Shown: one piece after another, positions 1 to 11,246 of the stretch
How the letters are laid out: every line of letters starts with the position of its first letter
Position numbering within the stretch: position 1 is the first letter of the stretch
Source of the DNA: a virus
Lineage: Duplodnaviria > Heunggongvirae > Uroviricota > Caudoviricetes
Virus record (IMG/VR): IMGVR_UViG_2645727640_000017
Direction: 5' to 3' (one strand)
Length of the DNA: 11,246 bases
Program-made: the position numbers and the translations under genes
The notes under the pieces: model-generated
What the model saw: only the letters and a program-made list of their open reading frames with translations
Told to the model about the DNA's origin: nothing
Database searches by the model: none

Positions 1-569
1 GACGCAGACAAAAAAATCTGGTTACGCTGGTAAGGTTGCGCCACATCGTCACGCAGCGCCATCAGCAGTGCTTCCTGTGCAAAATACCAGGTCGCTCCAA
101 TCTGTCGGGATTTCAGGATCATCCTGTTACGTATCCCGGCTTCCCTGCAAAGTGTCAGGGAGTCAAACCAGCCCCGCTGATGCCACTCCAGCCTGCTGAT
201 GATTTTTTCCCGCAGTGCGGCAATCTGTTCCGGCGTGAAATGATTTTTGAGTTTTTTCGCCCGGCTTTTCTTTCCTGTGGCCGTCGCATCCGGCTGGCCA
301 TCATGCAGTTTTTTAAGCTGCCGGGTCAGCAGGTCTATTTCCTTGAAGTCACCACCTGTTTTATTCTGTTTTTCAGTAAGCTGGATGAGGCGCGCATCGA
401 TGGACTGCGTGACACGCTGCACGGGTGGCGTTTCATCCCACTGGTCGCGTTTTTTCCACGCATAAATCGTGTTCGGGTTTATTCCCATCAGACGTGATAT
501 TTCTGCGGGCGGATAACCCTGCCAGTAAAGTTGCCGCGCACGCTGGCGCACAAAAGCGTCCTGAATCAT
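1..569 (-). CDS. P: Terminase large (ATPase) subunit, P2 gpP-like; N-terminal ~189 codons only, gene continues past the window start
   Basis: Minus-strand frame is open from ATG (complement of 567-569) to the window edge; it is absent from the supplied track because it has no in-window stop. My translation starts MIQDAFVRQRARQLYWQGYPPAEISRLMGINPNTIYAWKKRDQWDE and contains ILKSRQIGATWYFAQEALL, which I recognise as the N-terminal region of P2-family terminase ATPase subunits. It is divergent from the scaffold gene as in P2. A GGGGGAG motif lies just upstream of the start on the minus strand. Confidence 0.8.
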   Translation of the reverse strand, partial: MIQDAFVRQRARQLYWQGYPPAEISRLMGINPNTIYAWKKRDQWDETPPVQRVTQSIDARLIQLTEKQNKTGGDFKEIDLLTRQLKKLHDGQPDATATGKKSRAKKLKNHFTPEQIAALREKIISRLEWHQRGWFDSLTLCREAGIRNRMILKSRQIGATWYFAQEALLMALRDDVAQPYQRNQIFLSA

Positions 570-724
570 TGCTCCCCCTGAGTAATTACAGGAAGATTAC
601 CCGCGCGCGAAACCGTTCTCCTTAACCCCCTGTTCTGGCCGTTTTCTTACAACAAAAGCCCTTTGTATCAGCCTGTTACGCTTTGCCATCATGACTGAAG
701 AACCAGTCAGAGGGGCAAAAAACT
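570..724. promoter_or_regulatory. Divergent intergenic control region between gpP and gpO; expected site of the back-to-back late promoters (P2 P_P/P_O equivalents)
   Basis: 155-bp non-coding gap between two divergently oriented genes. Contains an imperfect dyad TGT(631-633)...ACA(649-651) with a 15-nt spacer; I did not find an exact Ogr-type TGT-N12-ACA. GAGGGG at 710-715 is the likely ribosome binding site for gpO. The promoter call is by position and synteny only. Confidence 0.35.
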
Positions 725-1561
725 ATGACTAATGAAAAAAAGACATCCCGCAAAAAGTTTCGCGTGGCTGTCTCCGGTGTGACGGCAGACGGGCGCGAAA
801 TAAACGGCGACATGCTGAAAGCTGCCGCCACCAGTTATAACCCGTCCGTTTATGGTGCACGTGTGAATATTGAGCACATCCTGTCACCACTCCCCGGTAG
901 CGAGTTTTCCGCTATGGGCGATGTTGTGGGGTTGAGCACCGAAGACATAACCGATGGCCCGCTGGCAGGTCGCACGGCACTGTATGCCGAAATTGAGCCG
1001 ACCGCTCGCATGATGTCCCTGCTTAACGATGGTAAAAAAATTTACTCCAGTATTGAGCTGGAACCACAGTCAACCATCACGGGAGGCCCTTACCTGCGCG
1101 GGCTGGCAATGACCGACACCCCCGCCAGCCTGGGCACGGAACGTCTGGCCTTTGCGGCACAACAACGTATGCAACTGATGACATTCAACTGTCAGCAGGG
1201 AGACGTGGCGATGTTCACCGCCGCTATGGAGTCAGAACTTATCGAACTCACCGAACAACGTCAGGAAGAAGGCACCCAGTGGTTTAACCGCGTTATGGGG
1301 ATTATTGGCCGTGGCCGCAAAGCGGATGACGCCAGTTTCTCCCGTATTCAGGAAGCGGTGGAAGGTGTCGCAACGTCACAGGCCGACATTATCGACCGTT
1401 TTAATGCGCTAGAAACCCGCCATCAGCAGGACAGCCAGAAAATCACTTCGCTGACCACAGAGCTGACAACACTGAAGGAAAAGCTGCGCACGCAGGACGG
1501 CGATCCGCAGAACCGGTTCACCGCAACGGGCGCAGCCTCCGACCAGCTGGCTGACTTCTGA
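725..1561 (+). CDS. O: Capsid scaffolding protein, P2 gpO-like
   Basis: 278-aa ORF with ATG at 725 preceded by GAGGGG. It sits first after the divergent region and immediately upstream of the major capsid gene. The N-terminal region and the internal LAMTDTPASLGTE motif resemble P2 gpO as I recall it. Confidence 0.88.
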   Translation: MTNEKKTSRKKFRVAVSGVTADGREINGDMLKAAATSYNPSVYGARVNIEHILSPLPGSEFSAMGDVVGLSTEDITDGPLAGRTALYAEIEPTARMMSLLNDGKKIYSSIELEPQSTITGGPYLRGLAMTDTPASLGTERLAFAAQQRMQLMTFNCQQGDVAMFTAAMESELIELTEQRQEEGTQWFNRVMGIIGRGRKADDASFSRIQEAVEGVATSQADIIDRFNALETRHQQDSQKITSLTTELTTLKEKLRTQDGDPQNRFTATGAASDQLADF

Positions 1562-1584
1562 TAAGACAAAGGAGCAAATTTTTT

Positions 1585-2637
1585 ATGAATCTGGTGATGT
1601 CAGATAATGCCCGTAACAAGCTGGGCTGCTACATGACGCGACAGGCGTCGATTAACAATATCCCGGTTTCTGGACTGGTATCGCGATTTACCGTGGAACC
1701 CGCGGTGCAGCAGCGTTTTGAAAACGCCTCAAAGGATAGCACCGAACTTACAAAAAAAATTAACGTGATCGGTGTGACCGACCAGAAAGGCGAAAAAGTC
1801 CTCATGGACACCACCGGGCCGATTGCGCGCACAAATACCAGTTATGACGGCACAGATCGCCGCAACCCGATTAACGCTGTCGACCTGAAGTCCCGTCAGT
1901 ACCAGTGTGAGCAGGTGAACTACGACACGTTTATTTCGTATCCGCAGCTTGATGCCTGGGCGGCGCACAATGACTTCCAGACCCGCATCAGCGCACAGAT
2001 TGCCCGACAGGTGGCGCTTGACCGCATCATGATCGGCTTTAACGGCACGTCACACGCGGAAAAATCCAACTTCAGCACCAACAAGCTGCTTCAGGACGTT
2101 AACGTGGGGTGGCTGGAGCACATCAGAACCAATGCCAGCGCGCGCGTAATGAATGACGTGACGCTGACCTCCCGCAACATGGACAACACCGTGGCGCACG
2201 CGGGTAAGTATGCGAACGCTGATGCACTGGTACAGGACGCACGCTCATCCCTGCTGGATGAATGGCACAAGGAAGCTGACGACCTCGTGGTGATTATGGG
2301 GCGCAACCTGTTTAACTCGCTGCGTCTGCCCGTGCTGAACAGCATCAGCGGCCAGAATCCCAATGCGGAATTACTTGCCGGGCAGCTCATCCTGTCATCG
2401 CGCACCATTGGCGGGCTGGGCGTGTTCCTTGCGCCGTTCTTCCCGGATGCAACGATGCTGATCACCTCGTTCAACAACCTGTCGATTTACTGGCAGAAAG
2501 GTTCAATGCGTCGTCTGATGAAAGACGAACCGGAATACAACCGCATCGCCACCTACCAGTCCATCAATGACGCTTATGTCGTTGAAGACTATGGCAAGTG
2601 CGCGATGGTCACTGGCCTGAAGTTCGCCGACAGCTAA
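1585..2637 (+). CDS. N: Major capsid protein, P2 gpN-like
   Basis: 350-aa ORF with GGAG at 1571-1574 ten nt upstream of ATG 1585. Conserved blocks typical of P2-family major capsid proteins (FTVEPAVQQ, VGWL, LITSFNNLSIYWQ, YVVEDYG) and the expected position after the scaffold gene. Confidence 0.92.
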   Translation: MNLVMSDNARNKLGCYMTRQASINNIPVSGLVSRFTVEPAVQQRFENASKDSTELTKKINVIGVTDQKGEKVLMDTTGPIARTNTSYDGTDRRNPINAVDLKSRQYQCEQVNYDTFISYPQLDAWAAHNDFQTRISAQIARQVALDRIMIGFNGTSHAEKSNFSTNKLLQDVNVGWLEHIRTNASARVMNDVTLTSRNMDNTVAHAGKYANADALVQDARSSLLDEWHKEADDLVVIMGRNLFNSLRLPVLNSISGQNPNAELLAGQLILSSRTIGGLGVFLAPFFPDATMLITSFNNLSIYWQKGSMRRLMKDEPEYNRIATYQSINDAYVVEDYGKCAMVTGLKFADS

Positions 2638-2646
2638 TCAACTCAC

Positions 2647-2665
2647 GGCGGGCATCATGCCCGCC
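2647..2665 (+). other. Perfect GC-rich hairpin in the N-M intergenic gap (8-bp stem GGCGGGCA/TGCCCGCC, 3-nt loop), no downstream U-tract
   Basis: Read directly: ggcgggca-tca-tgcccgcc at 2647-2665, ten nt after the gpN stop and six nt before the GGAGAG ribosome binding site of gpM. Confidence 0.5.
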
Positions 2666-2682
2666 TGTAACGGAGAGAAAAA

Positions 2683-3483
2683 ATGATTACTCCTGCACAA
2701 CAACACTGGCAGAACGTGATGGCACAGCGCGCAGGCCGGGCGAATGAAGGCGTGGACCACGCCGCGCGTACCGCGCATGAAGAGGTGCTGTATCGTCTGC
2801 GTCTGGCACAGGCCCGGCTTAAGGGCGTACAGGCCAGAAGCGCGAAAGCCGCCATCAAAAAAGAGTTGTTGCCGGATTTTTCCGGCTGGATTGAGGGAAC
2901 GCTGGAGGCTGACGGCGGGCAGCAGGATGAAGTGATTGCCACGCTGATGGTGTGGGCAATTGACTGCGGCGATCTTCCGCTGGCGTTGCGTATTGGTGCG
3001 TATGTGGTCCGTCATAACCTCATTATGCCGGATAACTTTGGCCGTACTGCTGCCACAGTGCTGACCGAAGAAATCTGCAACCCGGTACTGACGCAGGCCG
3101 GGACGGATGCCGACGCGGATTTGTCCGCCTTTATCGAACCACTGGATACCCTCCGGGAGATTGTCACCGACCAGGACATGCCGGACGAAGTGCGCGCCAA
3201 ATTATGCAAGGCGTGCGCCTTTGCCCGCCGTGGCCTGAGTGATGCGGACAGCATGGCCCTGTCACTGAAGCTGCTGCGCGAAGCAATGCACCTGAACCCG
3301 AATGCAGGTGTGAAACGCGAGATTGCAACCCTTTCCCGCGCCCTGAAAAAAGCCGATTCCGCAGCCGAACCAGAAGACGCCAGCGCACAGCAGGCGCAGG
3401 ACGAAAGCAGCAAAAGTAAAAAGACAACGCGGAAGCCTGCAACACGAAAAACCACCGCGACGCAGAAGGCGAAGCGCGGTTAA
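2683..3483 (+). CDS. M: Terminase small (endonuclease) subunit, P2 gpM-like
   Basis: 266-aa ORF with GGAGAG five nt upstream of ATG 2683. KKELLP, MPDEVRAKL and AGVKREI blocks and the basic K/R-rich C-terminal tail match the P2 gpM family. Position after N is as in P2. Confidence 0.86.
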   Translation: MITPAQQHWQNVMAQRAGRANEGVDHAARTAHEEVLYRLRLAQARLKGVQARSAKAAIKKELLPDFSGWIEGTLEADGGQQDEVIATLMVWAIDCGDLPLALRIGAYVVRHNLIMPDNFGRTAATVLTEEICNPVLTQAGTDADADLSAFIEPLDTLREIVTDQDMPDEVRAKLCKACAFARRGLSDADSMALSLKLLREAMHLNPNAGVKREIATLSRALKKADSAAEPEDASAQQAQDESSKSKKTTRKPATRKTTATQKAKRG

Positions 3484-3499
3484 CGACTGACCCCGTCAG

Positions 3500-3570
3500 C
3501 GGGCGGCGTGCGCGGTGTTCCGGTTTGACTCCGTGACCGTTTACACCGCGCACCCACCGCCCGATTTTTT
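3500..3570 (+). terminator. Candidate intrinsic terminator/attenuator: long interrupted GC-rich inverted repeat followed by T6, between gpM and gpL
   Basis: Left arm CGGGCGGCGTGCGCGGTGT (3500-3518) pairs with right arm ACACCGCGCACCCACCGCCCG (3543-3563) as 11 bp plus 7 bp perfect pairs with a small internal loop. The 24-nt apical region contains its own CGGT/ACCG mini-stem. This is followed by A then TTTTTT (3565-3570), then AGGAG (3572-3576) and the gpL start. Confidence 0.4.
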
Positions 3571-3584
3571 CAGGAGTGAACCCC

Positions 3585-4079
3585 ATGAGTATGGTTGCCA
3601 GAACCAACCCCGGACCCGCAGAGGACGACATCACCGATACCGATGATGGTGATATCCGTATTTCAGCGGGTGCATTCTGGCCGGATATTGTGCTGCGTGA
3701 GCTGCGTCTGGCGGTACGACTGCCGGGCCGTGTGACCACCTCCCGCCTGCTGCATACCGCCACTGGGGCCGTGGCACACGTTACCCGCGAGCTGGAAGCA
3801 TGGCAGCAGGAACAGCAGGCGGCTGGCCATCAGACGCTGGCCGATGTTCCGGCACCCGTAATTAACGGAGAAAGCGTCAATCTCTGGCACTGGCGCAATG
3901 CTGTTTATACCGCCACACGCGCCCTGATTCTGGAGCGTTACCGCGATGCAGACACAACGGACAAGGGCGACCGCCGGGCGGACGCACTGGATATACAGAC
4001 ATCGGATTTGTGGCGCGATGTGAGCTGGGCCATCTCTGACATTCTGCGCCGCCCGCGAATCTTTGCGGAGTTGTGCTGA
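3585..4079 (+). CDS. L: Head completion/stabilisation protein, P2 gpL-like
   Basis: The track ORF 3576..4079 begins at a GTG that overlaps the ribosome binding site; I chose ATG 3585, eight nt after AGGAG. The LADVPA..INGESV..WRD motifs resemble P2 gpL. The stop TGA (4077-4079) overlaps the gpX start. Confidence 0.85.
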   Translation: MSMVARTNPGPAEDDITDTDDGDIRISAGAFWPDIVLRELRLAVRLPGRVTTSRLLHTATGAVAHVTRELEAWQQEQQAAGHQTLADVPAPVINGESVNLWHWRNAVYTATRALILERYRDADTTDKGDRRADALDIQTSDLWRDVSWAISDILRRPRIFAELC

Positions 4080-4279
4080 TGAAGGTGAAGGCACTGGAAG
4101 GCGACACCGTGGATTCGCTCTGTTTCCGGTACTACGGCACGACGCAGGGCGTCACCGAAAAGGTGCTGGATGCCAACCCCGGGCTCTGTCAGCAGGTATT
4201 TCTGGACGCCGGGCAGGAAGTGGAGATGCCGGAGCCGGAGAAGAAGAAACGAGAAATGATTCAGTTGTGGGGGGAATAG
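4079..4279 (+). CDS. X: Small tail protein, P2 gpX-like (LysM-like fold family)
   Basis: 66-aa ORF from ATG 4079 (tgATG overlap with the gpL stop). The GDTVDSLCFRYYG...VLDANPGL pattern matches gpX-family proteins, and it sits between L and the holin as in P2. Confidence 0.82.
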   Translation: MKVKALEGDTVDSLCFRYYGTTQGVTEKVLDANPGLCQQVFLDAGQEVEMPEPEKKKREMIQLWGE

Positions 4280-4281
4280 CA

Positions 4282-4605
4282 GTGAGCACCATTCAAACAG
4301 GGATTACAGAGCAGGTTATTGCATGGCTCTTTGACCACCTGCCAACGGTGTATGCAGTAGGCGCGGCGGTCAGCATTTCCGCGCTGATGAGTCTTTATGA
4401 CGGACGAACACTGGTTCAGACCGTAACGGGATCGCTGGCGTGCGGCGTTCTTGCCATGGCCGTGGCCGGGTCGTTGCGCTTCTTCGGGTTTCCTGAAGAT
4501 GCCGTGACGTTTATCGGCGCATCAATCGGTTTTATGGGCGCAGAGAAAGCACGCGACAAGGTTATTGCGGCCTTTAATCGCAGGGTGAAGGAGAAGGACG
4601 AATGA
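4282..4605 (+). CDS. Holin (three predicted transmembrane segments, highly charged C-terminus)
   Basis: The track ORF 4063..4605 overlaps gpL/gpX in another frame, so I trimmed it to the in-frame GTG 4282, six nt after a GGGGGGA run. An alternative GTG lies at 4267. Hydrophobic stretches VIAWLFDHLPTVYAVGAAVSISALMSLY, TGSLACGVLAMAVAGSL and FIGASIGFMGA are followed by EKARDKVIAAFNRRVKEKDE. It occupies the position of P2 gene Y. Confidence 0.68.
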   Translation: MSTIQTGITEQVIAWLFDHLPTVYAVGAAVSISALMSLYDGRTLVQTVTGSLACGVLAMAVAGSLRFFGFPEDAVTFIGASIGFMGAEKARDKVIAAFNRRVKEKDE

Positions 4606-4994
4606 GCAACACATTTAAATTCAGCAGCCGGAGCGAAAAGAATTTGCAGGGCGTAAATCCTGAGCTGGTGAAAGTGACCCGACGGGCACTGGAAATTTCG
4701 GAAGTGGATTTTGGTATCACCGAAGGGTTGCGCAGCCGTTACCGCCAGAAGCAACTTGTGGCCACGGGTAAGAGCCAGACCATGAACAGCCGCCACCTTA
4801 CGGGGCATGCCGTGGATGTTGTGGCTTATATCGGCAGCCAGGTGTCATGGGAATGGCCGCTGTACGAAAAAATCGCAGCAGCATTCAGACAGGCCAGCCG
4901 GGAACTGAATATTCCGGTGGAATGGGGCGGCGACTGGAAGACCCTGAAAGACGGACCGCATTTTCAGTTACCGCACGGAGTTTATCCGGCATGA
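4602..4994 (+). CDS. Endolysin, Zn-dependent peptidase M15 family (L-alanyl-D-glutamate endopeptidase, T5-endolysin-like)
   Basis: 130-aa ORF with AAGGAG (4588-4593) eight nt upstream of ATG 4602, and an ATGA overlap with the holin stop. Candidate Zn-ligand pattern SRHLTGHAVD ... DGPHFQ and overall resemblance to the small T5-type endolysin. No signal peptide. Confidence 0.82.
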   Translation: MSNTFKFSSRSEKNLQGVNPELVKVTRRALEISEVDFGITEGLRSRYRQKQLVATGKSQTMNSRHLTGHAVDVVAYIGSQVSWEWPLYEKIAAAFRQASRELNIPVEWGGDWKTLKDGPHFQLPHGVYPA

Positions 4995-5398
4995 AGCTCT
5001 GGCCCACGCTGGGCGTCGCTTTCCTTCTGATTGCCGCATGGGGAACATCCATGCGTCTGTCGTGGTCGCTTGGCCGGGAGAACGCCAGAAACGAAGTGCA
5101 GGCCAGCACCCTGAAAAGCACCGTCGACACCCTGAATATCATCAGCACCGGGGTACAGGATATGCAGCAGGTGCTGGCGCAACTCCGCGTGGAAAATCAA
5201 CAGAGAAATCAGGACGGAGAGGCCAGACGTGAACAGCTACGCAACGATATTGCAAAAGATGAATGCGCCCACGCTTTGCCTGACGCTCGTTTTACTGACA
5301 GGTTGCGCAGGCACGCAGAACGCGCCACGGCCAGCGCCGTCAGTCCGGCTTATACCGCAGACGCTGACCATACCGGTAACGCCTCCCCCCTTCCCTGA
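4991..5398 (+). CDS. lysB: i-spanin (Rz-like), P2 LysB equivalent
   Basis: ATG 4991 overlaps the endolysin stop (ATGA). N-terminal transmembrane segment LWPTLGVAFLLIAAWGTSM followed by a charged, Q/R/E-rich predicted coiled-coil region. The track ORF 4847..5398 is an upstream extension in the same frame that overlaps the endolysin. Confidence 0.78.
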   Translation: MKLWPTLGVAFLLIAAWGTSMRLSWSLGRENARNEVQASTLKSTVDTLNIISTGVQDMQQVLAQLRVENQQRNQDGEARREQLRNDIAKDECAHALPDARFTDRLRRHAERATASAVSPAYTADADHTGNASPLP

Positions 5399-5549
5399 TA
5401 CTCCCACATGGGGAAATCTCGGTATATGGGGCGACCGCCTTCTGGATGCACTGGAAACCTGTAACGCGGATAAACGGGCCATTGAATTACTGGAACAGCG
5501 CAGGCTGCAACGACTGAACAACGAGGATAACAACCATGCTGAAAACTGA
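5229..5549 (+). CDS. lysC: o-spanin lipoprotein (Rz1-like), P2 LysC equivalent; starts inside lysB in another frame and extends past it
   Basis: GTG 5229 lies six nt after GGAGAGG (5216-5222); an alternative ATG is at 5259. Lipobox LLTGC in MNSYATILQKMNAPTLCLTLVLLTGC, followed by a proline-rich mature region (PRPAPSVRLIPQTLTIPVTPPPFPDTP). Overlaps the 3' half of lysB and 14 nt of gpR. Confidence 0.68.
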   Translation: MNSYATILQKMNAPTLCLTLVLLTGCAGTQNAPRPAPSVRLIPQTLTIPVTPPPFPDTPTWGNLGIWGDRLLDALETCNADKRAIELLEQRRLQRLNNEDNNHAEN

Positions 5550-6003
5550 TTCCCTGCGTGAAGCCATGACCCGTTCATGCCGATGGTGTCAGGCCAACCC
5601 GGAAAAATTCACCATTTTCGTGGAGAGCGGCAATATTGAAACGACCGGAGAAACGCCCTCGTTTGTTTACCACTATCAGATGGTGATGTTTGTCATGGAT
5701 TACGCCGGAGAGCTGGACGACCTCACGCTGCCGCTGCTGGCGTGGTTATCCGAAAATCAGCCACAGTTGCTGCTCAATCCGAAGCGTAATCAGGACATCA
5801 AATTTTCTGCCGTTATCAATGACGATGACAGCGCCGATCTCCTGTTTACGCTCCCCCTGCAGGAACGCGTTCGCATCACGCGCAGCAGTCAGGGTACACC
5901 GCAGGCAGAACACCTGCCGGAGCCAAAACCCCGCCTGCCCTCTTCCGAAGGCGACTGGTCGCATGTATTCCAGGATGTGACGTGGAGTGAAAGCGATGGA
6001 TAA
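5536..6003 (+). CDS. R: Tail completion protein, P2 gpR-like
   Basis: 155-aa ORF. MLKTDSLREAMT...FVESGNIE...LPLLAWLSENQPQLL matches the gpR family as I recall it. Position after the lysis genes is as in P2. Confidence 0.86.
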   Translation: MLKTDSLREAMTRSCRWCQANPEKFTIFVESGNIETTGETPSFVYHYQMVMFVMDYAGELDDLTLPLLAWLSENQPQLLLNPKRNQDIKFSAVINDDDSADLLFTLPLQERVRITRSSQGTPQAEHLPEPKPRLPSSEGDWSHVFQDVTWSESDG

Positions 6004-6631
6004 GGCATTCATCCGCGTGGATGAAACCTTTGAGGCCATCCGCGACAGCCTGAATCAGCAGGCCATCAATAACATCGCCAGAAAGCTGGCACAGGATTTA
6101 CGTCGCGCCCAGCAGGCACGTATCCGGTCACAGAAAGCGCCGGACGGGACCGCATGGACACCACGCAGACGCCGCGTAACCCGGATACAGGAGCGCATTC
6201 GCTTTATCTGGAATAACGAAGCACGCACGCTGAAAAACTGGCATCACGACACGGGGAAATACGGGCGAACCATCACCGGGTGGGATGAGGATAAAAACAA
6301 TATCCGCACGTTTTACCGGGATGACATCGACCGTTTTCTGGAAATACGCACCCGGCGCATCAACCAGGACAGCACAAAGCGCGTCCCCATGTTCGTAAAA
6401 CTGCGCACCGCCCGCCACCTGAAAGCCCGTGCAGATGCTTCCGGTGTGACGGTGGGTTACAGCGGCGTGGCCGCACGTATTGCACGCGTTCATCAGTTCG
6501 GTGAGCGCGATCAGGTTGCGCCGGGCATTTTCACCGATTACCCGGTACGTGAGCTGTTGGGCATCAGTCAGGCAGATGAACGCCTGATTTATAACACGGT
6601 GCTGGGCCGGATTGCGGAGGCTGTACGGTGA
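5996..6631 (+). CDS. S: Tail completion / virion morphogenesis protein, P2 gpS family
   Basis: ATG 5996 lies eight nt after GGAG (5984-5987) and overlaps the gpR stop; the track starts at the upstream GTG 5987. The stop overlaps the gpV start (GTGA). Assigned from conserved position between R and V and family-like sequence (QKAPDGTAWTPRRR...ARVHQFGERD). Confidence 0.8.
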   Translation: MDKAFIRVDETFEAIRDSLNQQAINNIARKLAQDLRRAQQARIRSQKAPDGTAWTPRRRRVTRIQERIRFIWNNEARTLKNWHHDTGKYGRTITGWDEDKNNIRTFYRDDIDRFLEIRTRRINQDSTKRVPMFVKLRTARHLKARADASGVTVGYSGVAARIARVHQFGERDQVAPGIFTDYPVRELLGISQADERLIYNTVLGRIAEAVR

Positions 6632-7209
6632 GCGCAGAACTCATGCGACTGCTGAGCAACATCATCCGCACCGGGATCATCTCTGAAGTTGATGAGAAAT
6701 CCTGGTGCGTGCGCGTTCGCAGCGGCGAACTGGAAACAGGCTGGTTGCGCTGGAACACCACGCGCGCGGGAGCCTTCAATGTGTGGCTGCCGCCATCACC
6801 CGGCGAACAGGTGGTAATTGCCTGCATTGGCGGCAACCCGGAAACCGCCATGATAATTGGCAGCCTGTGGAGTGATACCAATCCGGCCCCCGGCAAAAGC
6901 CTGAAAGAAATCGTGGTCAGCGCGCCGGATGGCGCGGTGTTCCGCTACGACGCGGACGCAGGCGCACTGAGCGCCAGCGGCATGAAAACAGCCAGCCTGC
7001 AGGCATCCGTCAGCGTGACACTGGACACGCCCGTCGTGGAATGCACAAACCTTCTGAGAACGGCGACGCTTGACGTCACAAAAGGGGGAAAGATGAGCGG
7101 CAATATCACGCACAGCGGCGGCAATTTCACCTCAAACGGCATCACAGTGCATACGCATAAGCACGGTGGCGTTAAAGGTGGCAGCGATTCGACAGGAGGC
7201 CCGCAGTGA
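6628..7209 (+). CDS. V: Baseplate spike/assembly protein, P2 gpV-like
   Basis: GTG 6628 lies seven nt after GGAGG (6616-6620); an alternative ATG is at 6643. IRTGII...WLRW..RAG...GEQV...KHGGVKGGSDSTGGP blocks match gpV-family spike proteins. Confidence 0.9.
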   Translation: MSAELMRLLSNIIRTGIISEVDEKSWCVRVRSGELETGWLRWNTTRAGAFNVWLPPSPGEQVVIACIGGNPETAMIIGSLWSDTNPAPGKSLKEIVVSAPDGAVFRYDADAGALSASGMKTASLQASVSVTLDTPVVECTNLLRTATLDVTKGGKMSGNITHSGGNFTSNGITVHTHKHGGVKGGSDSTGGPQ

Positions 7210-7556
7210 CAACCCGCTACACAGGAATGAACCCGGACGGGACGGGAAACCTGAACGATATGGAGCACCTGAAACAGTCAGTCAGGGATATCCTGACCAC
7301 CCCGCTGGCAAGCCGGGTTATGCGACGGGAATATGGCAGCCTTTTGCCTGATTTGATTGACGAACCCATGAATAACACCACGCGTCTGCAATGCATGAGT
7401 GCTGCCGTGATTGCACTGACACGATGGGAACCCCGCATTGCCCTGGACGCCATCGACGTTGTCTGGAAGGCAGGAGGCCGCGCCGGGGTGACGCTGTCGG
7501 GCACTGTCATGCAGACCATGCAGAATGTTGAATTAACCATCACGCTGAGGGAGTAA
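7206..7556 (+). CDS. W: Baseplate wedge protein, P2 gpW-like (gp25/lysozyme-like fold family)
   Basis: GTG start overlaps the gpV stop (GTGA). The N-terminus MTTRYTGMN and the SRVMRREYGSLLPDLID block match P2 gpW as I recall it. Confidence 0.9.
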   Translation: MTTRYTGMNPDGTGNLNDMEHLKQSVRDILTTPLASRVMRREYGSLLPDLIDEPMNNTTRLQCMSAAVIALTRWEPRIALDAIDVVWKAGGRAGVTLSGTVMQTMQNVELTITLRE

Positions 7557-7559
7557 ATC

Positions 7560-8456
7560 ATGCCCGCCGTTGACCTTTCCCAGTTACCGGAACCCGCCAT
7601 CATCGCGGAGCCTGACTTTGAAGCAATTCTGGCTGACACAAAAGCCATGATGATTGCGTCCTATCCCGCCGAACAGCGTGAAGCCGTTTCCGCCGCGCTG
7701 GAGCTGGAATCGGAACCCCTTAACGTTATCGCCCAGACAACAGCGTTTCGTGAAATGCTGTTACGCCAGCGGGTCAATGAGGGTGCACGCGCCTGCATGT
7801 TAAGCCACAGCGCCGGGACAGACCTGGACAACCTCGCGGGCAATATGAACACAAAGCGCCTGGTTATCACTCCGGCAACGGATACCACCGACGCGGTGAT
7901 GGAGAGCGACACCTCGCTGAGACTGCGGGCGCAGCGGGCGTACGACGGCCTGAGTGTTGCTGGCCCGTCAGGTGCATACGAGTATTTTGCCCGCAGCGCC
8001 AGCGGTCTGGTGCGTGATGCGCGGGCTATCAGTCCGTCTCCGGCCAATGTGACGGTTTCCATCCTGTCCACTGAAGGCGACGGCACAGCAACGGAGGCGT
8101 TGCTTAATACCGTTCGCGCCGTTCTGAATGCAGAGGATACCCGCCCGGTGGCCGACCGCCTGACGGTACAGAGCGCCAGAATCGTGACATGGCGGCTGAA
8201 TGCAAAACTGTACTTTTACCCCGGTCCGGAATCCGAACCTATTCTGGCCGCGGCGGAATCGTCGTTCAGGAAGTGGCTGGCTGAGCAGGGGCTTATCGGT
8301 CAGGACGTGGCGCTGTCAGCCATTGCTGCCGCACTGCATGTGCACGGTGTGCAACGCGTGGAGATAATCGAACCCACACAGAATATGGCCATCAGCGACA
8401 TACAGGCGGCGCGCTGTGAGTCATTCACCATCAGCGAAGGTGGGCGCAATGAGTAA
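7560..8456 (+). CDS. J: Baseplate protein, P2 gpJ-like
   Basis: 298-aa ORF with GGGAG seven nt upstream of ATG 7560. MPAVDLSQLPEP...RPVADRLTVQSA...LHVHGVQRVE blocks match gpJ. Confidence 0.9.
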   Translation: MPAVDLSQLPEPAIIAEPDFEAILADTKAMMIASYPAEQREAVSAALELESEPLNVIAQTTAFREMLLRQRVNEGARACMLSHSAGTDLDNLAGNMNTKRLVITPATDTTDAVMESDTSLRLRAQRAYDGLSVAGPSGAYEYFARSASGLVRDARAISPSPANVTVSILSTEGDGTATEALLNTVRAVLNAEDTRPVADRLTVQSARIVTWRLNAKLYFYPGPESEPILAAAESSFRKWLAEQGLIGQDVALSAIAAALHVHGVQRVEIIEPTQNMAISDIQAARCESFTISEGGRNE

Positions 8457-8979
8457 TTCGTTGTTACCACCATCAGCCAGCAATTTCATGCGTTGTGCCG
8501 AAGCCGTCGGAACACGCATTACAGACATTCCGGTAGACCTCAACACGCTGTGGTCGCCGGACACCTGCCCGGTGCATCTGCTGCCTTATCTCGCCTGGGC
8601 GTTTTCCGTTGACCGCTGGGATCGCAACTGGCCGGAAGAGACAAAGCGACAGGTGATTCGTGATGCATGGCTGATACACCGACACAAAGGGACCATCAGC
8701 GCACTGCGCCGGGCCATTGAGCCGCTGGGATACCTCATTCGTGTGTCTGAGTGGTGGGAGTTCGACGGAGAACCGGGAACATTTACCGTTGAAGTGGGCA
8801 CGCTGGACAGTGGCGTGACGGAGGAAATGTATCTGGAAATGGAGCGGTTGATTGCTGATGCCCGCCCGGCCAGCCGCCACATGACAGGGCTGAATATCAT
8901 TCAGGAAATTCCGGGAGATATTTTCGCGGCGGCAGCAACTTACGACGGTGAAGTCATTACCATTTATCCGGACGATTAA
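8449..8979 (+). CDS. I: Baseplate protein, P2 gpI-like
   Basis: ATG 8449 overlaps the gpJ stop (ATGAGTAA); the track ORF begins at 8416 inside gpJ. LWSPDTCPVHLLPYLAWAFSVDRWD and EMERLIADARPASRH blocks match gpI. Confidence 0.88.
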   Translation: MSNSLLPPSASNFMRCAEAVGTRITDIPVDLNTLWSPDTCPVHLLPYLAWAFSVDRWDRNWPEETKRQVIRDAWLIHRHKGTISALRRAIEPLGYLIRVSEWWEFDGEPGTFTVEVGTLDSGVTEEMYLEMERLIADARPASRHMTGLNIIQEIPGDIFAAAATYDGEVITIYPDD

Positions 8980-8981
8980 GC

Positions 8982-11084
8982 ATGAGTACCACAACACGAA
9001 AATTTAAAACCGTTATCACCGATACGGGTGCAAAAAAATTAGCTCAGGCAGCCGCGCCAGATGGTAAGCCTGTCCGCCTGACTCATATGGCCGTGGGCGA
9101 CGGTGGCGGCACGTTGCCCACACCAGACAGTAAGCAGACCCGTCTGGTGCATGAGGTGTGGCGACACACTGTTAATCGCGTCATCCTGGACGCAACACAT
9201 CAGAACCGCATTATTGCGGAGCTGGTTATTCCTCCTGAAACGGGCGGATTCTGGATCCGGGAAATTGGTGTATTTGATGAGCACGGCGATTTGATCGCGG
9301 TGGGCAATACTGCGGAAAGTTACAAGCCAGCCGTTGCCGAAGGATCCGGACGTGCACAAACATTTCGCACCATTCTGACCGTATCCAGCACTGCCACCGT
9401 GGCGCTTACCGTGGATAACACCATGGTGATGGCCTCAGTGGATTACGTGGATGACAAACTGAAAGAGCATGAACAGTCACGACGTCACCCGGATGCCTCT
9501 CTGACCGCAAAAGGCTTTGTTCAACTCAGTAGCGCCACTAACAGCGATTCTGAAACGCTGGCTGCAACGCTGAAAGCGGTTAAGGCCGCGTATGACCTGG
9601 CTAACGGAAAATATACCGCTCAGGACGCCACGACGGCACAAAAAGGGATAGTTCAGCTCAGTAGTGCCACCAACAGCACGTCTGAAACACTGGCCGCGAC
9701 ATCGAAAGCGGTTAAGGCGGTAATGGATGAAACGAACAAGAAAGCCCCATTAAACAGCCCGGCACTGACCGGAACGCCAACAACACCAACTGCACAACAG
9801 GGAACGAATAATACCCAAATCGCAAGCACGGCTTTCGTTATGGCCGCGATTGCCGCACTTGTAGACTCTTCACCTGACGCACTGAACACGCTGAACGAGC
9901 TGGCGGCGGCGCTGGGAAACGACCCGAATTTTGCGACCACCATGACTAACGCGCTTGCGGGTAAGCAACCGAAAGATGCCACCCTGACGGCGCTGGCCGG
10001 GCTTGCTACTGCGGCAGACAGGTTTCCGTATTTTACGGGGAATGATGTCGCCAGCCTGGCAACTCTGACAAAAGTAGGGCGGGATATTCTTGCGAAATCG
10101 ACCGTTGCCGCTGTTATCGAATACCTCGGTTTACAGGAAACGGTAAATCAGGCTTCTGGAGCATTACAAAAAAACCAGAACGGCGCGGATATTCCGGGAA
10201 AAGATACCTTCACCAAAAATATTGGGGCCTGCCGCGCATATGGCGCATGGCTGGATATTGGTGGCGATAATCAGGTCTGGACAACCGCGCAATTTATTTC
10301 GTGGCTGGAGAGTCAGGGAGCATTTAACCATCCTTACTGGATGTGCAAAGGCTCATGGGCTTATGCAAATAATAAGGTCATTACAGATACAGGTTGCGGA
10401 GATATTGGTCTTGCAGGTGCTGTGGTGGAAGTTATTGGCACTCGCGGCGCAATGACCATACGCGTTACCACGCCGAGTACGTCCAGCGGCAGCGGAATTA
10501 CTAACGCTCAATTCACTTATATTAATCATGGTGATGCTTATGCTCCTGGCTGGCGACGGGACTACAACACGAAAAATCAACAACCTGCATTTGCTTTAGG
10601 GCAAACAGGACGCAGGGTCGCAAATGATAAAGCTGTTGGCTGGAACTGGAATAGCGGTGTTTATGATGCAGATATCAGTGGTGCATCGACATTAATCCTC
10701 CACTTCAATATGAATGCGGGGAGTTGCCCTGCCGTACAGTTCCGCGTGAATTACAGGAATGGCGGTATTTTTTATCGTTCAGCGCGTGATGGTTATGGAT
10801 TTGAAGCTGACTGGTCAGAGTTTTACACCACAACCCGCAAACCCTCTGCGGGGGATGTTGGTGCATATACTCAGGCAGAATGTAACTCAAGGTTTATTAC
10901 AGGTATTCGCCTTGGCGGTCTGTCATCTGTTCAGACATGGAATGGTCCCGGCTGGTCTGACAGGTCAGGTTATGTCGTTACGGGTTCAGTTAACGGAAAC
11001 CGTGATGCATTAATTGATACAACTCAGGCAAGGCCAATTCAGTATTGCATTAATGGAACGTGGTATAACGCGGGGAGTATTTAA
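8982..11084 (+). CDS. H: Tail fibre protein, P2 gpH-like; conserved N-terminal ~390 aa joined to a compositionally distinct C-terminal receptor-binding region
   Basis: 700-aa ORF. The N-terminal half ([11 protein letters not shown]...MAVGDGGG...IAELVIPPE..., [38 protein letters not shown]) matches P2 gpH. The final 300 or so residues are Gly/Asn/Trp-rich and visibly lower in GC, ending in the INGTWYN-type tip. Confidence 0.9.
9510..9722 (+). repeat. Two copies of an 81-bp in-frame imperfect direct repeat inside gpH (9510-9590 and 9642-9722), encoding KG(F/I)[21 protein letters not shown]
   Basis: Codon-by-codon comparison of the two 27-codon blocks gives 63 of 81 identical nt (about 78%); the copies are 132 bp apart. 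Confidence 0.75.
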
Positions 11085-11086
11085 TC

Positions 11087-11180
11087 ATGATGCACTTAAA
11101 AAACATTACTGCTGGCAACCCTAAAACAAAAGAGCAATACCAGCTAACGAAACAATTTAACATCAAATGGCTTTATACAG
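11087..11180 (+). pseudogene. tfa: Tail fibre assembly (chaperone) gene, 5' fragment of about 31 codons, interrupted by IS5
   Basis: ATGATG at 11087 two nt after the gpH stop. Encodes [31 protein letters not shown], which matches the N-terminus of the Tfa/P2-G chaperone family. After nt 11180 the frame reads into IS5 terminal sequence and stops at TGA 11216-11218. Confidence 0.75.
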
Positions 11181-11246
11181 GGAAGGTGCGAATAAGCGGG
11201 GAAATACTTCTCGGCTGACTCAGTCATTTCATTTCTTCATGTTTGA
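11181..11246 (-). mobile_element. IS5 terminus (16-bp terminal inverted repeat GGAAGGTGCGAATAAG plus 50 bp of internal sequence); element continues beyond the window, transposase expected on the - strand
   Basis: ggaaggtgcgaataagcggggaaatacttctcggctgactcagtcatttcatttcttcatgtttga matches the IS5 end sequence as I remember it from E. coli, with at most one mismatch. It begins exactly where the tfa reading frame loses family similarity. Confidence 0.78.

Follow-up and report, generated by a model that had tools for sequence, protein, structure and literature searches.

A P88-type lysis cassette with an M15-family endolysin and no lysA in a P2-like Escherichia coli prophage

Layout of the cassette and its occurrence in E. 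coli

The window analysed here, a stretch of 11,246 nucleotides from the IMG/VR virus record IMGVR_UViG_2645727640_000017 (Caudoviricetes), has its lysis cassette at positions 4282-5549: four tightly packed late genes with the tail genes X and R on either side (Table 1). The coordinates and layout that a first-pass annotation of this DNA had given for the cassette, including two ATGA overlaps, are borne out by the positions of the open reading frames (4282-4605, 4602-4994 and 4991-5398): the holin and M15 endolysin genes share nucleotides 4602-4605, and the M15 endolysin and i-spanin genes share nucleotides 4991-4994. The o-spanin gene begins within the i-spanin gene in the +1 frame and its stop, at 5549, lies 14 nucleotides into gene R; its start is ambiguous (GTG at 5229 or ATG at 5259), and the o-spanin sequence, MNAPTLCLTLVLLTGC, was read directly from the window. 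RefSeq (phage P88) and PGAP (E. coli prophages) annotate the same gene boundaries.

Table 1. Genes of the lysis cassette and its flanks (positions in the window)
Feature	Position	Strand	Remarks
Tail protein X, upstream flank of the lysis slot	4079..4279	+	Pfam Phage_tail_X E 9e-21; 48% identity to P2 X
Holin, putative class I-type, lambda S family	4282..4605	+	107 aa, GTG start
M15_C / LAS zinc metallopeptidase endolysin, soluble (predicted)	4602..4994	+	130 aa
i-spanin, Rz / LysB-like	4991..5398	+	135 aa, N-terminal membrane anchor
o-spanin, Rz1 / LysC-type lipoprotein	5229 or 5259..5549	+	lipobox LLTGC
Tail completion protein R, downstream flank	5536..6003	+	Pfam P2_Phage_GpR E 1.3e-39; 36% identity to P2 R

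A consensus scan of positions 3400-6800 returned no promoter-like site (mean of shuffled sequences 1.6) and three terminator-like sites, not above the number in shuffled sequence (mean 4.0, sd 2.2); the site at 4369-4388 on the plus strand falls inside the holin gene. Rfam gave no matches across the whole window.

Positions 1-9718 are collinear with positions 13583-23298 of P88 at 95.3% identity over 9.7 kb. Nucleotide identity of the region 4073-5549 to Xuanwuvirus phages is 97.7-98.6%, and that of the cassette to P88 is 97.7%. P88 and the Xuanwuvirus members 503458, 520873, 500465-2, P884B11, Chuche and PhiR44_2 have the same gene boundaries as the window, differ from it within the cassette by point differences alone and are annotated with a holin/anti-holin, an endolysin (Peptidase M15) and a DUF2570/Rz-like spanin. 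Differences to P88 outside the cassette include an invertible tail-fibre segment, which is flipped here, and an IS5 element in the tail-fibre assembly gene, which may have left the prophage unable to finish a productive lytic cycle; P88 itself is a viable, inducible and plaque-forming phage. At a query coverage of at least 80%, the cassette is found in 1008 of 5426 complete E. coli genomes. The unusualness that the first-pass annotation had implied is not supported: Xuanwuvirus phages normally carry this cassette and have it annotated, nothing about it is new, and it is common in E. coli genomes and labelled accordingly in public records.

Holin, spanins and the absence of lysA

The product of the first gene matches Pfam Phage_holin_3_1 (PF05106; E 1.1e-19, 71.1 bits at a gathering cut-off of 23.8) and phrog_126, 'holin/anti-holin' (E 1.7e-35), the PHROG that also contains lambda S; its score against NCBIfam TIGR01594 (holin_lambda), 54.5 bits, is 0.5 bit short of the equivalog cut-off of 55.05. 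Kyte-Doolittle maxima near residues 30, 57 and 80 parallel the lambda S profile, the third being only weakly hydrophobic. The purine-rich stretch GGGGGGAA at 4270-4277, upstream of the GTG at 4282, is read as the putative Shine-Dalgarno site of the gene. BLAST similarity to P2 Y is absent. Judged by its sequence, the holin is a member of the lambda S family and non-orthologous to P2 Y (phrog_175). This difference in holin family had been overlooked in the first-pass annotation.

The i-spanin matches the Rz-like spanins of phrog_214 (E 5.4e-41) and, weakly, phrog_89, the family of P2 LysB; its hydrophobic segment comprises residues 3-21 and PGAP names it 'DUF2570 domain-containing protein'. The o-spanin matches Pfam LysC (E 9.4e-14, 51.5 bits at a cut-off of 27) as well as phrog_3001 and phrog_456, the latter being the P2 LysC family, and shares its stop with a protein annotated by PGAP as 'Rz1-like lysis system protein LysC'. 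No NCBIfam model was found for the spanins or the M15 protein. Among the lysis proteins, the spanins alone are distant homologues of P2 proteins.

That lysA is missing and has no room in the cassette is borne out by both the searches and the layout. A tblastn search with P2 LysA over all six frames of the window gave no match (best E 0.59, outside the cassette), and neither did a search of the whole P88 genome (best E 0.53); an overlapping homologue in another frame, which had been named as a possible objection, is therefore absent from the six frames. The stop of the endolysin gene overlaps the start of the i-spanin gene and leaves no gap for lysA, and in a six-frame hydropathy scan of positions 4200-5650 the holin was the sole frame with multiple putative transmembrane domains. 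The same scan showed a few short hydrophobic antisense stretches, inside chance ORFs. The lysA gene is confined to P2 proper.

An unrecognised LysA analogue, encoded either by an alternative start of the holin or by a small overlapping ORF, would be in keeping with the generally low conservation of antiholins, with the PHROG name 'holin/anti-holin' and with the holin frame, which stays open upstream to an in-frame GTG at 4267. We consider it unlikely: initiation at this GTG would add five uncharged residues (VGGIA), without the positive charge that Lys2 provides in lambda S107, and no hydrophobic ORF other than the holin is present on the coding strand. The N-terminus of the holin reads V/M-S-T-I-Q-T-G; the Met-Lys-Met motif of a dual start was sought there and is absent, though a Yersinia relative (L066) has one, and where the homologues from Enterobacter and Dryocola have Met residues near the N-terminus, the window holin has Ile. 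The change of holin family bears more on lysis timing, which may be regulated differently as the first-pass annotation had proposed, than the loss of lysA does.

The M15 endolysin

The product of 4602-4994 matches the peptidase model Pfam Peptidase_M15_4 (PF13539) above threshold (E 8e-12, 46 bits at a cut-off of 25) and the endolysin family phrog_465 (E 1.8e-76). Its PDB matches are ChiX (5opz, E 1.3e-47), LysECD7 (8q2g, E 1.4e-45) and the T5 endolysin (2mxz, E 3.5e-23), with identities of 61% over the full length to both ChiX and LysECD7 and of 42% to a T5-type endolysin. The gene hence encodes an M15 zinc peptidase rather than a lysozyme of the P2 K type, just as the first-pass annotation had it, and the predicted His/Asp/His pattern of zinc ligands is present as H65-x6-D72 ... 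H120, aligned to H68, D75 and H123 of ChiX. The catalytic Asp (D117) and the substrate Arg (R44) align to ChiX D120 and R47, and the conserved active-site Trp is W112 (W109 in RB49, W114 in T5). The hydropathy scan found no hydrophobic N-terminus and the enzyme therefore has no signal or SAR domain. PGAP names the gene 'M15 family metallopeptidase' in E. coli genomes; by tblastn ranking, the protein is also about 62% identical to endolysins of coliphages of about 164 kb, for example kaaroe and KFS-EC, and its phage homologues widely carry the annotation L-alanyl-D-glutamate peptidase.

From the identity to the characterised enzymes, we infer that the specificity is that of an L-Ala-D-Glu endopeptidase. 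ChiX has L-Ala-D-Glu activity on E. coli sacculi, with GlcNAc-MurNAc-L-Ala as product, and a D120A knock-out is published. Cleavage of peptide rather than glycan, as previously proposed, thus stands at the level of the M15 peptidase family, but the bond that was named does not: by analogy with ChiX, the enzyme would cut L-Ala-D-Glu within the stem peptide, which detaches the cross-bridge from the glycan, and not the D-Ala-mDAP cross-link. The Pfam description of PF13539 as 'D-alanyl-D-alanine carboxypeptidase' and a zinc-ligand pattern that is common to all LAS enzymes would also fit a VanY/VanX-like DD-carboxypeptidase or DD-endopeptidase acting on D-Ala-D-Ala or on the D-Ala-mDAP cross-link; such an activity is very unlikely, given the full-length identity to LysECD7 and to ChiX, which is biochemically proven to yield GlcNAc-MurNAc-L-Ala, the similar identity to the kaaroe and KFS-EC endolysins, the L-alanyl-D-glutamate peptidase label of the phage homologues and an identity of just 16% between VanX and ChiX.

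The designation 'T5-like' holds for the family, but the nearest characterised relatives are ChiX and LysECD7. EndoT5 (PDB 2mxz/8p3a) shares the M15_C family and the H-x6-D motif with the window protein. EndoT5 has a Ca2+-binding loop that includes G118 and H121, and its catalytic Asp is D130. Between the conserved Trp and the catalytic Asp lie 4 residues in the window protein (W112, D117) versus 15 in T5 (W114, D130), and judging from this spacing the window protein appears to lack the Ca2+-regulatory loop of T5. Automatic alignment equated H120 of the window protein with T5 H121; this was rejected, as published work assigns H121 to the Ca2+ loop and names D130 as the catalytic residue, and HMMER and MAFFT appear to mis-register the T5 C-terminus because of the loop. 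The enzymes of the LysECD7 (8q2g) / EndoRB49 type are closer: like the window protein they have about 130 aa and a single globular M15_C domain, at 61-62% identity, and by a 3-residue offset from the LysECD7 chain numbering H65, H120 and W112 would correspond to H62, H117 and W109 of EndoRB49. EndoRB49 has no Ca2+ regulation. The genes for these enzymes lie in large phages of about 164 kb, in genomic contexts other than that of the window cassette.

Interpretation and comparison with known lysis systems

We regard the region, with a probability of about 90%, as a lysis cassette of the canonical three-step kind, carried by an E. coli prophage of the P88 type (Xuanwuvirus, Peduoviridae). The cassette sits between X and R in the late head/tail operon, with no promoter or terminator of its own, and its genes would be translationally coupled through the ATGA overlaps. 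The sequence data show the family assignments, the catalytic residues, the gene layout, the lack of lysA and the frequency among E. coli genomes. Modelling hole formation, bond specificity and timing on lambda S, ChiX, LysECD7 and EndoRB49, we propose that the holin would build up in the inner membrane and then trigger to form large holes, and that the LysB/LysC-type spanin pair would next disrupt the outer membrane. Compared with P2, non-orthologous proteins replace both the holin and the endolysin, the separate antiholin gene lysA is missing and the spanins are divergent homologues.

The closest solved homologue of the endolysin, ChiX of Serratia marcescens (5opz), has the same zinc ligands, catalytic Asp and Arg, and the order of the ChiWXYZ operon is that of the window: a lambda-S-family holin (ChiW, compared by description), an M15 endopeptidase and two spanins. 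The ChiWXYZ operon belongs to a chitin-utilisation locus without phage genes and serves chitinase release, whereas the window cassette belongs to the virion operon of a prophage. We dismiss as highly improbable that the cassette is a non-lytic or subpopulation secretion device in the style of the ChiWXYZ type 10 secretion system, despite the architecture (holin-3/lambda S holin, M15 L-Ala-D-Glu endopeptidase and two spanins), the similarity to ChiX and the single translational start that ChiW likewise has, since its genes lie within a P2-type late operon flanked by the head and tail genes L, X, R and S, the virion module is otherwise complete and 95% identical to that of a plaque-forming phage, and ChiWXYZ is defined by having no phage genes nearby and by being linked to a chitinase cargo. 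A scan of the genome collection with the M15 protein did not retrieve chiWXYZ of Serratia. For the phage lysis cassette, two further ideas may be considered, which together we rate as rather unlikely: lysis timing in P88-type prophages might follow an unrecognised mechanism, because a lysA-type antiholin gene and a lambda-type dual-start motif are both lacking, or ChiWXYZ-type secretion systems might have been domesticated from a phage-borne sister lineage that the cassette represents. Such a domestication is conceivable because the two systems have endopeptidases of 61% identity, a common architecture and a single-start holin.

The finding has little importance beyond correct annotation. M15 endolysins are already under development as antibacterial enzymes (LysECD7, EndoT5, LysPH); the prophage version, carried by roughly every fifth complete E. 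coli genome, is thus a readily available natural variant, not a discovery. The cassette is furthermore a clean instance of a known pattern of P2-like phages: virion genes are conserved, and the lysis genes found between X and R are exchanged in modular fashion.

In P2, the module Y-K-lysA-lysB-lysC occupies the same slot of the late operon between X and R. The window has homologues of P2 L, X, R and S (25-48% identity), whereas BLAST found no match between the window and P2 Y, K, LysA or LysB. The cassette is indeed unlike that of canonical P2, as had been noted: Y, K and LysA are unmatched and the families differ, the holin being of the lambda S type (phrog_126) instead of Y (phrog_175), the endolysin an M15 peptidase (phrog_465) instead of the lysozyme K (phrog_90), and lysA (phrog_162) being present in P2 and absent from the window. 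Common to both are 'overlapped' spanins: lysC begins within lysB, in its +1 frame, and extends into R. The two LysC proteins share a Pfam family, and between the LysB-type proteins there are reciprocal weak PHROG matches.

The order L-X-holin-M15-spanin-R-S is also found in P2-like prophages of Enterobacter soli, Dryocola and Citrobacter sp., and replacement of the lysis module in P2-like phages is documented in the literature. The Burkholderia phage ST79, likewise P2-like, has a holin, lysB and lysC together with an M15 zinc-peptidase endolysin that has already been described and assayed; the ST79 enzyme, of about 18 kDa, is from another M15 subfamily (Peptidase_M15_3/M15A) than the window protein.

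Gene order of the late region and comparison with P2

The window comes from a P2-like prophage and represents its late (virion) region. Across 4282-5549 the reading-frame layout is exactly the one described in the first-pass annotation, with all ORFs and both ATGA overlaps present, and the same cassette ORF boundaries are found in RefSeq (phage P88) and in PGAP annotations of E. coli chromosomes.

Genes of the late region and of the lysis cassette
Feature	Position	Details
Terminase large subunit, N-terminus	about 1-570	minus strand; offset from annotation
Scaffold	725-1561	
Major capsid	1585-2637	
Small terminase	2683-3483	
Head completion L	to 4079	
Tail protein X	4079-4279	
Holin	4282-4605	107 aa; GTG start
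M15 endolysin	4602-4994	130 aa; ATGA overlap with holin ORF
i-spanin	4991-5398	135 aa; ATGA overlap with M15 ORF
o-spanin	stop at 5549	+1 frame; stop 14 nt inside R
Tail gene R	5536-6003	
Tail gene S	5987-6631	
Baseplate and tail-fibre genes	after S	

When every protein of the P2 region was compared with the window, L, X, R and S were found to be homologous (25-48% identity); P2 Y, K, LysA and LysB had no BLAST match among window proteins or frames and LysC was marginal. Family assignments differ for the holin (Phage_holin_3_2/phrog_175 for P2 Y, phrog_126 for the window), the endolysin (phrog_90 for K, phrog_465 for the M15 protein) and the i-spanin (phrog_89 for LysB, phrog_214 for the window, with weak matches in both directions), whereas Pfam LysC and phrog_456 are common to P2 LysC and the window o-spanin. 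P2 LysA (phrog_162) has no counterpart: a hydropathy scan of the cassette found no hidden LysA-like multi-TMD frame, consistent with the absence of lysA proposed earlier, and the whole P88 genome has no LysA counterpart either. The cassette therefore departs from P2 further than first noted: holin and endolysin are non-orthologous replacements of Y and K, lysA is missing, and only the spanins are divergent P2 homologues, with the overlapped architecture described in the literature for the P2 pair kept.

The S-like virion morphogenesis protein has 214 aa (150 aa in P2); the added residues are mid-protein and the Pfam Phage_tail_S match falls in two separate stretches.

Endolysin, holin and spanins

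The predicted M15 endolysin scores 46 bits with Pfam Peptidase_M15_4, where the cut-off is 25 bits, and matches the phrog_465 'endolysin' family with an E-value of 1.8e-76, bearing out the proposed family. Its best matches among all PDB sequences are the Serratia marcescens protein ChiX (5opz, E 1.3e-47), the M15C protein 23ri and LysECD7 (8q2g, E 1.4e-45), followed by the T5 endolysin (E 3.5e-23); ChiX and LysECD7 each share 61% identity with it, a T5-type endolysin 42%. ChiX, the closest solved relative, has been shown biochemically to release GlcNAc-MurNAc-L-Ala from E. coli sacculi; it binds zinc through His68, Asp75 and His123, requires Asp120, and has an Arg (Arg47) that has been linked to substrate binding. 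The aligned window residues are H65, D72 and H120, the expected Zn-ligand His/Asp/His pattern, as well as D117 and R44. Cleavage of peptide cross-links, as the first-pass annotation has it, is acceptable as a loose description and is also the wording of the ChiX paper, but the bond cleaved would be L-Ala-D-Glu in the stem peptide.

The conserved active-site Trp is kept (W112 here, W109 in EndoRB49, W114 in EndoT5). EndoT5 has a Ca2+-binding regulatory loop that includes G118 and H121, and its catalytic Asp is D130; because 15 residues separate Trp and catalytic Asp in T5, the C-terminus of which is apparently mis-registered by HMMER and MAFFT, and 4 separate them in the window protein, we infer a short, Ca2+-independent enzyme of the ChiX/RB49/ECD7 type. 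Hydropathy analysis found no hydrophobic N-terminal segment, so the enzyme is soluble and cytoplasmic and depends on a hole-forming holin.

Citrobacter phage Shae_phiSM (Xuanwuvirus) has, at 2511-3125, a 181-aa GH108 + PG_binding_3 endolysin in the exact slot of window 4583-4986, with flanks 97% identical to the window up to 4582 (last 8 holin codons) and from 4987 (i-spanin start): a clean swap of a single endolysin gene between near-identical phages.

The holin matches Pfam Phage_holin_3_1 (lambda S family, E 1.1e-19), shares its PHROG with lambda S and has three hydropathy maxima parallel to those of lambda S. No lambda-type dual start was found at its N-terminus (V/M-STIQTG): the sole upstream in-frame start adds the uncharged VGGIA, while a Yersinia homologue begins M-K-M. 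In Erwiniaceae bacterium CAU 1747 (3755-4177 of locus L075), a lambda-S-like holin N-terminus (MKMPEK...) continues in the same frame into the last 58 residues of an M15 endolysin, which looks like a cassette decayed by deletion.

The i-spanin is Rz-like (E 5e-41 to its PHROG) with an N-terminal hydrophobic anchor. The o-spanin matches Pfam LysC (51.5 bits, cut-off 27 bits) and has the lipobox LLTGC. Its start is ambiguous. A GGAG lies 9 nt before GTG 5229, a start that would give the signal n-region a Lys; no obvious Shine-Dalgarno sequence precedes ATG 5259, and the PGAP start in one genome is later than both.

Distribution of the cassette and variable tail-fibre end

The segment 4073-5549 (1477 bp) is 97.7-98.6% identical to P88, 503458, 520873, 500465-2, Xuanwuvirus P884B11, Chuche and PhiR44_2, and is present at at least 80% query coverage in 1008 of 5426 complete E. 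coli genomes. P88-type phage records annotate holin, endolysin (Peptidase M15) and spanin; PGAP labels are 'phage holin family protein', 'M15 family metallopeptidase', 'DUF2570 domain-containing protein' and 'LysC'. The M15 protein has homologues in 1314 of 50,697 phage records, usually named endolysin or L-alanyl-D-glutamate peptidase. P2 LysA has homologues in only 79, mostly P2-type (Peduovirus) by organism name among the matches listed, with four distant matches below 60% identity and no Xuanwuvirus among the best 40 of the 79. The order L-X-holin-M15-spanins-R-S is common to related P2-like prophages of Enterobacter soli, Dryocola and Citrobacter. According to published work, P2-like phages frequently differ from P2 in endolysin, holin and antiholin and sometimes have entire lambda-like lysis modules. 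One P2-like phage of Burkholderia, with holin, lysB, lysC and M15 endolysin, has been assayed. The first-pass observation is confirmed and its interpretation essentially correct; the cassette is the ordinary, already annotated one of a prophage genus that is very common in E. coli.

A 2.9-kb contig labelled 'MAG: Clostridiales bacterium' (SFIM01000060.1) has L, X, holin and M15 genes whose products are 97-99% identical to those of the window; it is almost certainly part of an E. coli prophage that was binned wrongly.

The last 66 bases of the window (11181-11246, junction about 11180/11181) are an IS5 terminus (GGAAGGTGCGAATAAG...), a 66-mer with 8175 occurrences across 1731 E. coli genomes; in one of them it adjoins a gene annotated 'IS5 family transposase' and disrupts fimZ. 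Since the tail-fibre assembly gene (start 11087) is interrupted after about 31 codons and cut to a 43-aa ORF, this prophage copy may be defective for tail-fibre assembly. Window 10114-11180, which encodes the C-terminal portion of the tail fibre and the beginning of the assembly protein, matches P88 26922-25856 in inverted orientation (95.9% identity) and P88 encodes a DNA invertase beside this segment; the window therefore carries the invertible host-range segment the other way round from the P88 reference. In a prophage of E. coli Z1323HEC0462, the closest relative among complete genomes, the gene following the tail fibre (12865-13477 of locus L005) is annotated 'macro domain-containing protein' in place of a tail-fibre assembly protein, another variable cargo position in the prophage family.

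Lysis route and relation to ChiWXYZ

A scan of 3400-6800 found no promoter-like site and three terminator-like sites, not above shuffled sequence (mean 4.0), and the window has no Rfam match; as the genes also overlap by 1-17 nt, expression would follow the late operon with translational coupling. Lysis most likely takes the canonical holin-endolysin-spanin pathway. P88 is inducible and plaque-forming, and a cassette without lysA is therefore enough for lysis. Timing regulated differently from P2, as suggested in the first-pass annotation, is plausible; of the differences from P2, the switch to another holin family is more relevant here.

The cassette has the same architecture as the Serratia type 10 secretion operon ChiWXYZ, which consists of a single-start holin-3/lambda S family holin, an M15 L-Ala-D-Glu endopeptidase and two spanins. 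Because it is located within a virion operon, the cassette is a lysis module and not a secretion system; a common origin of the two is possible.
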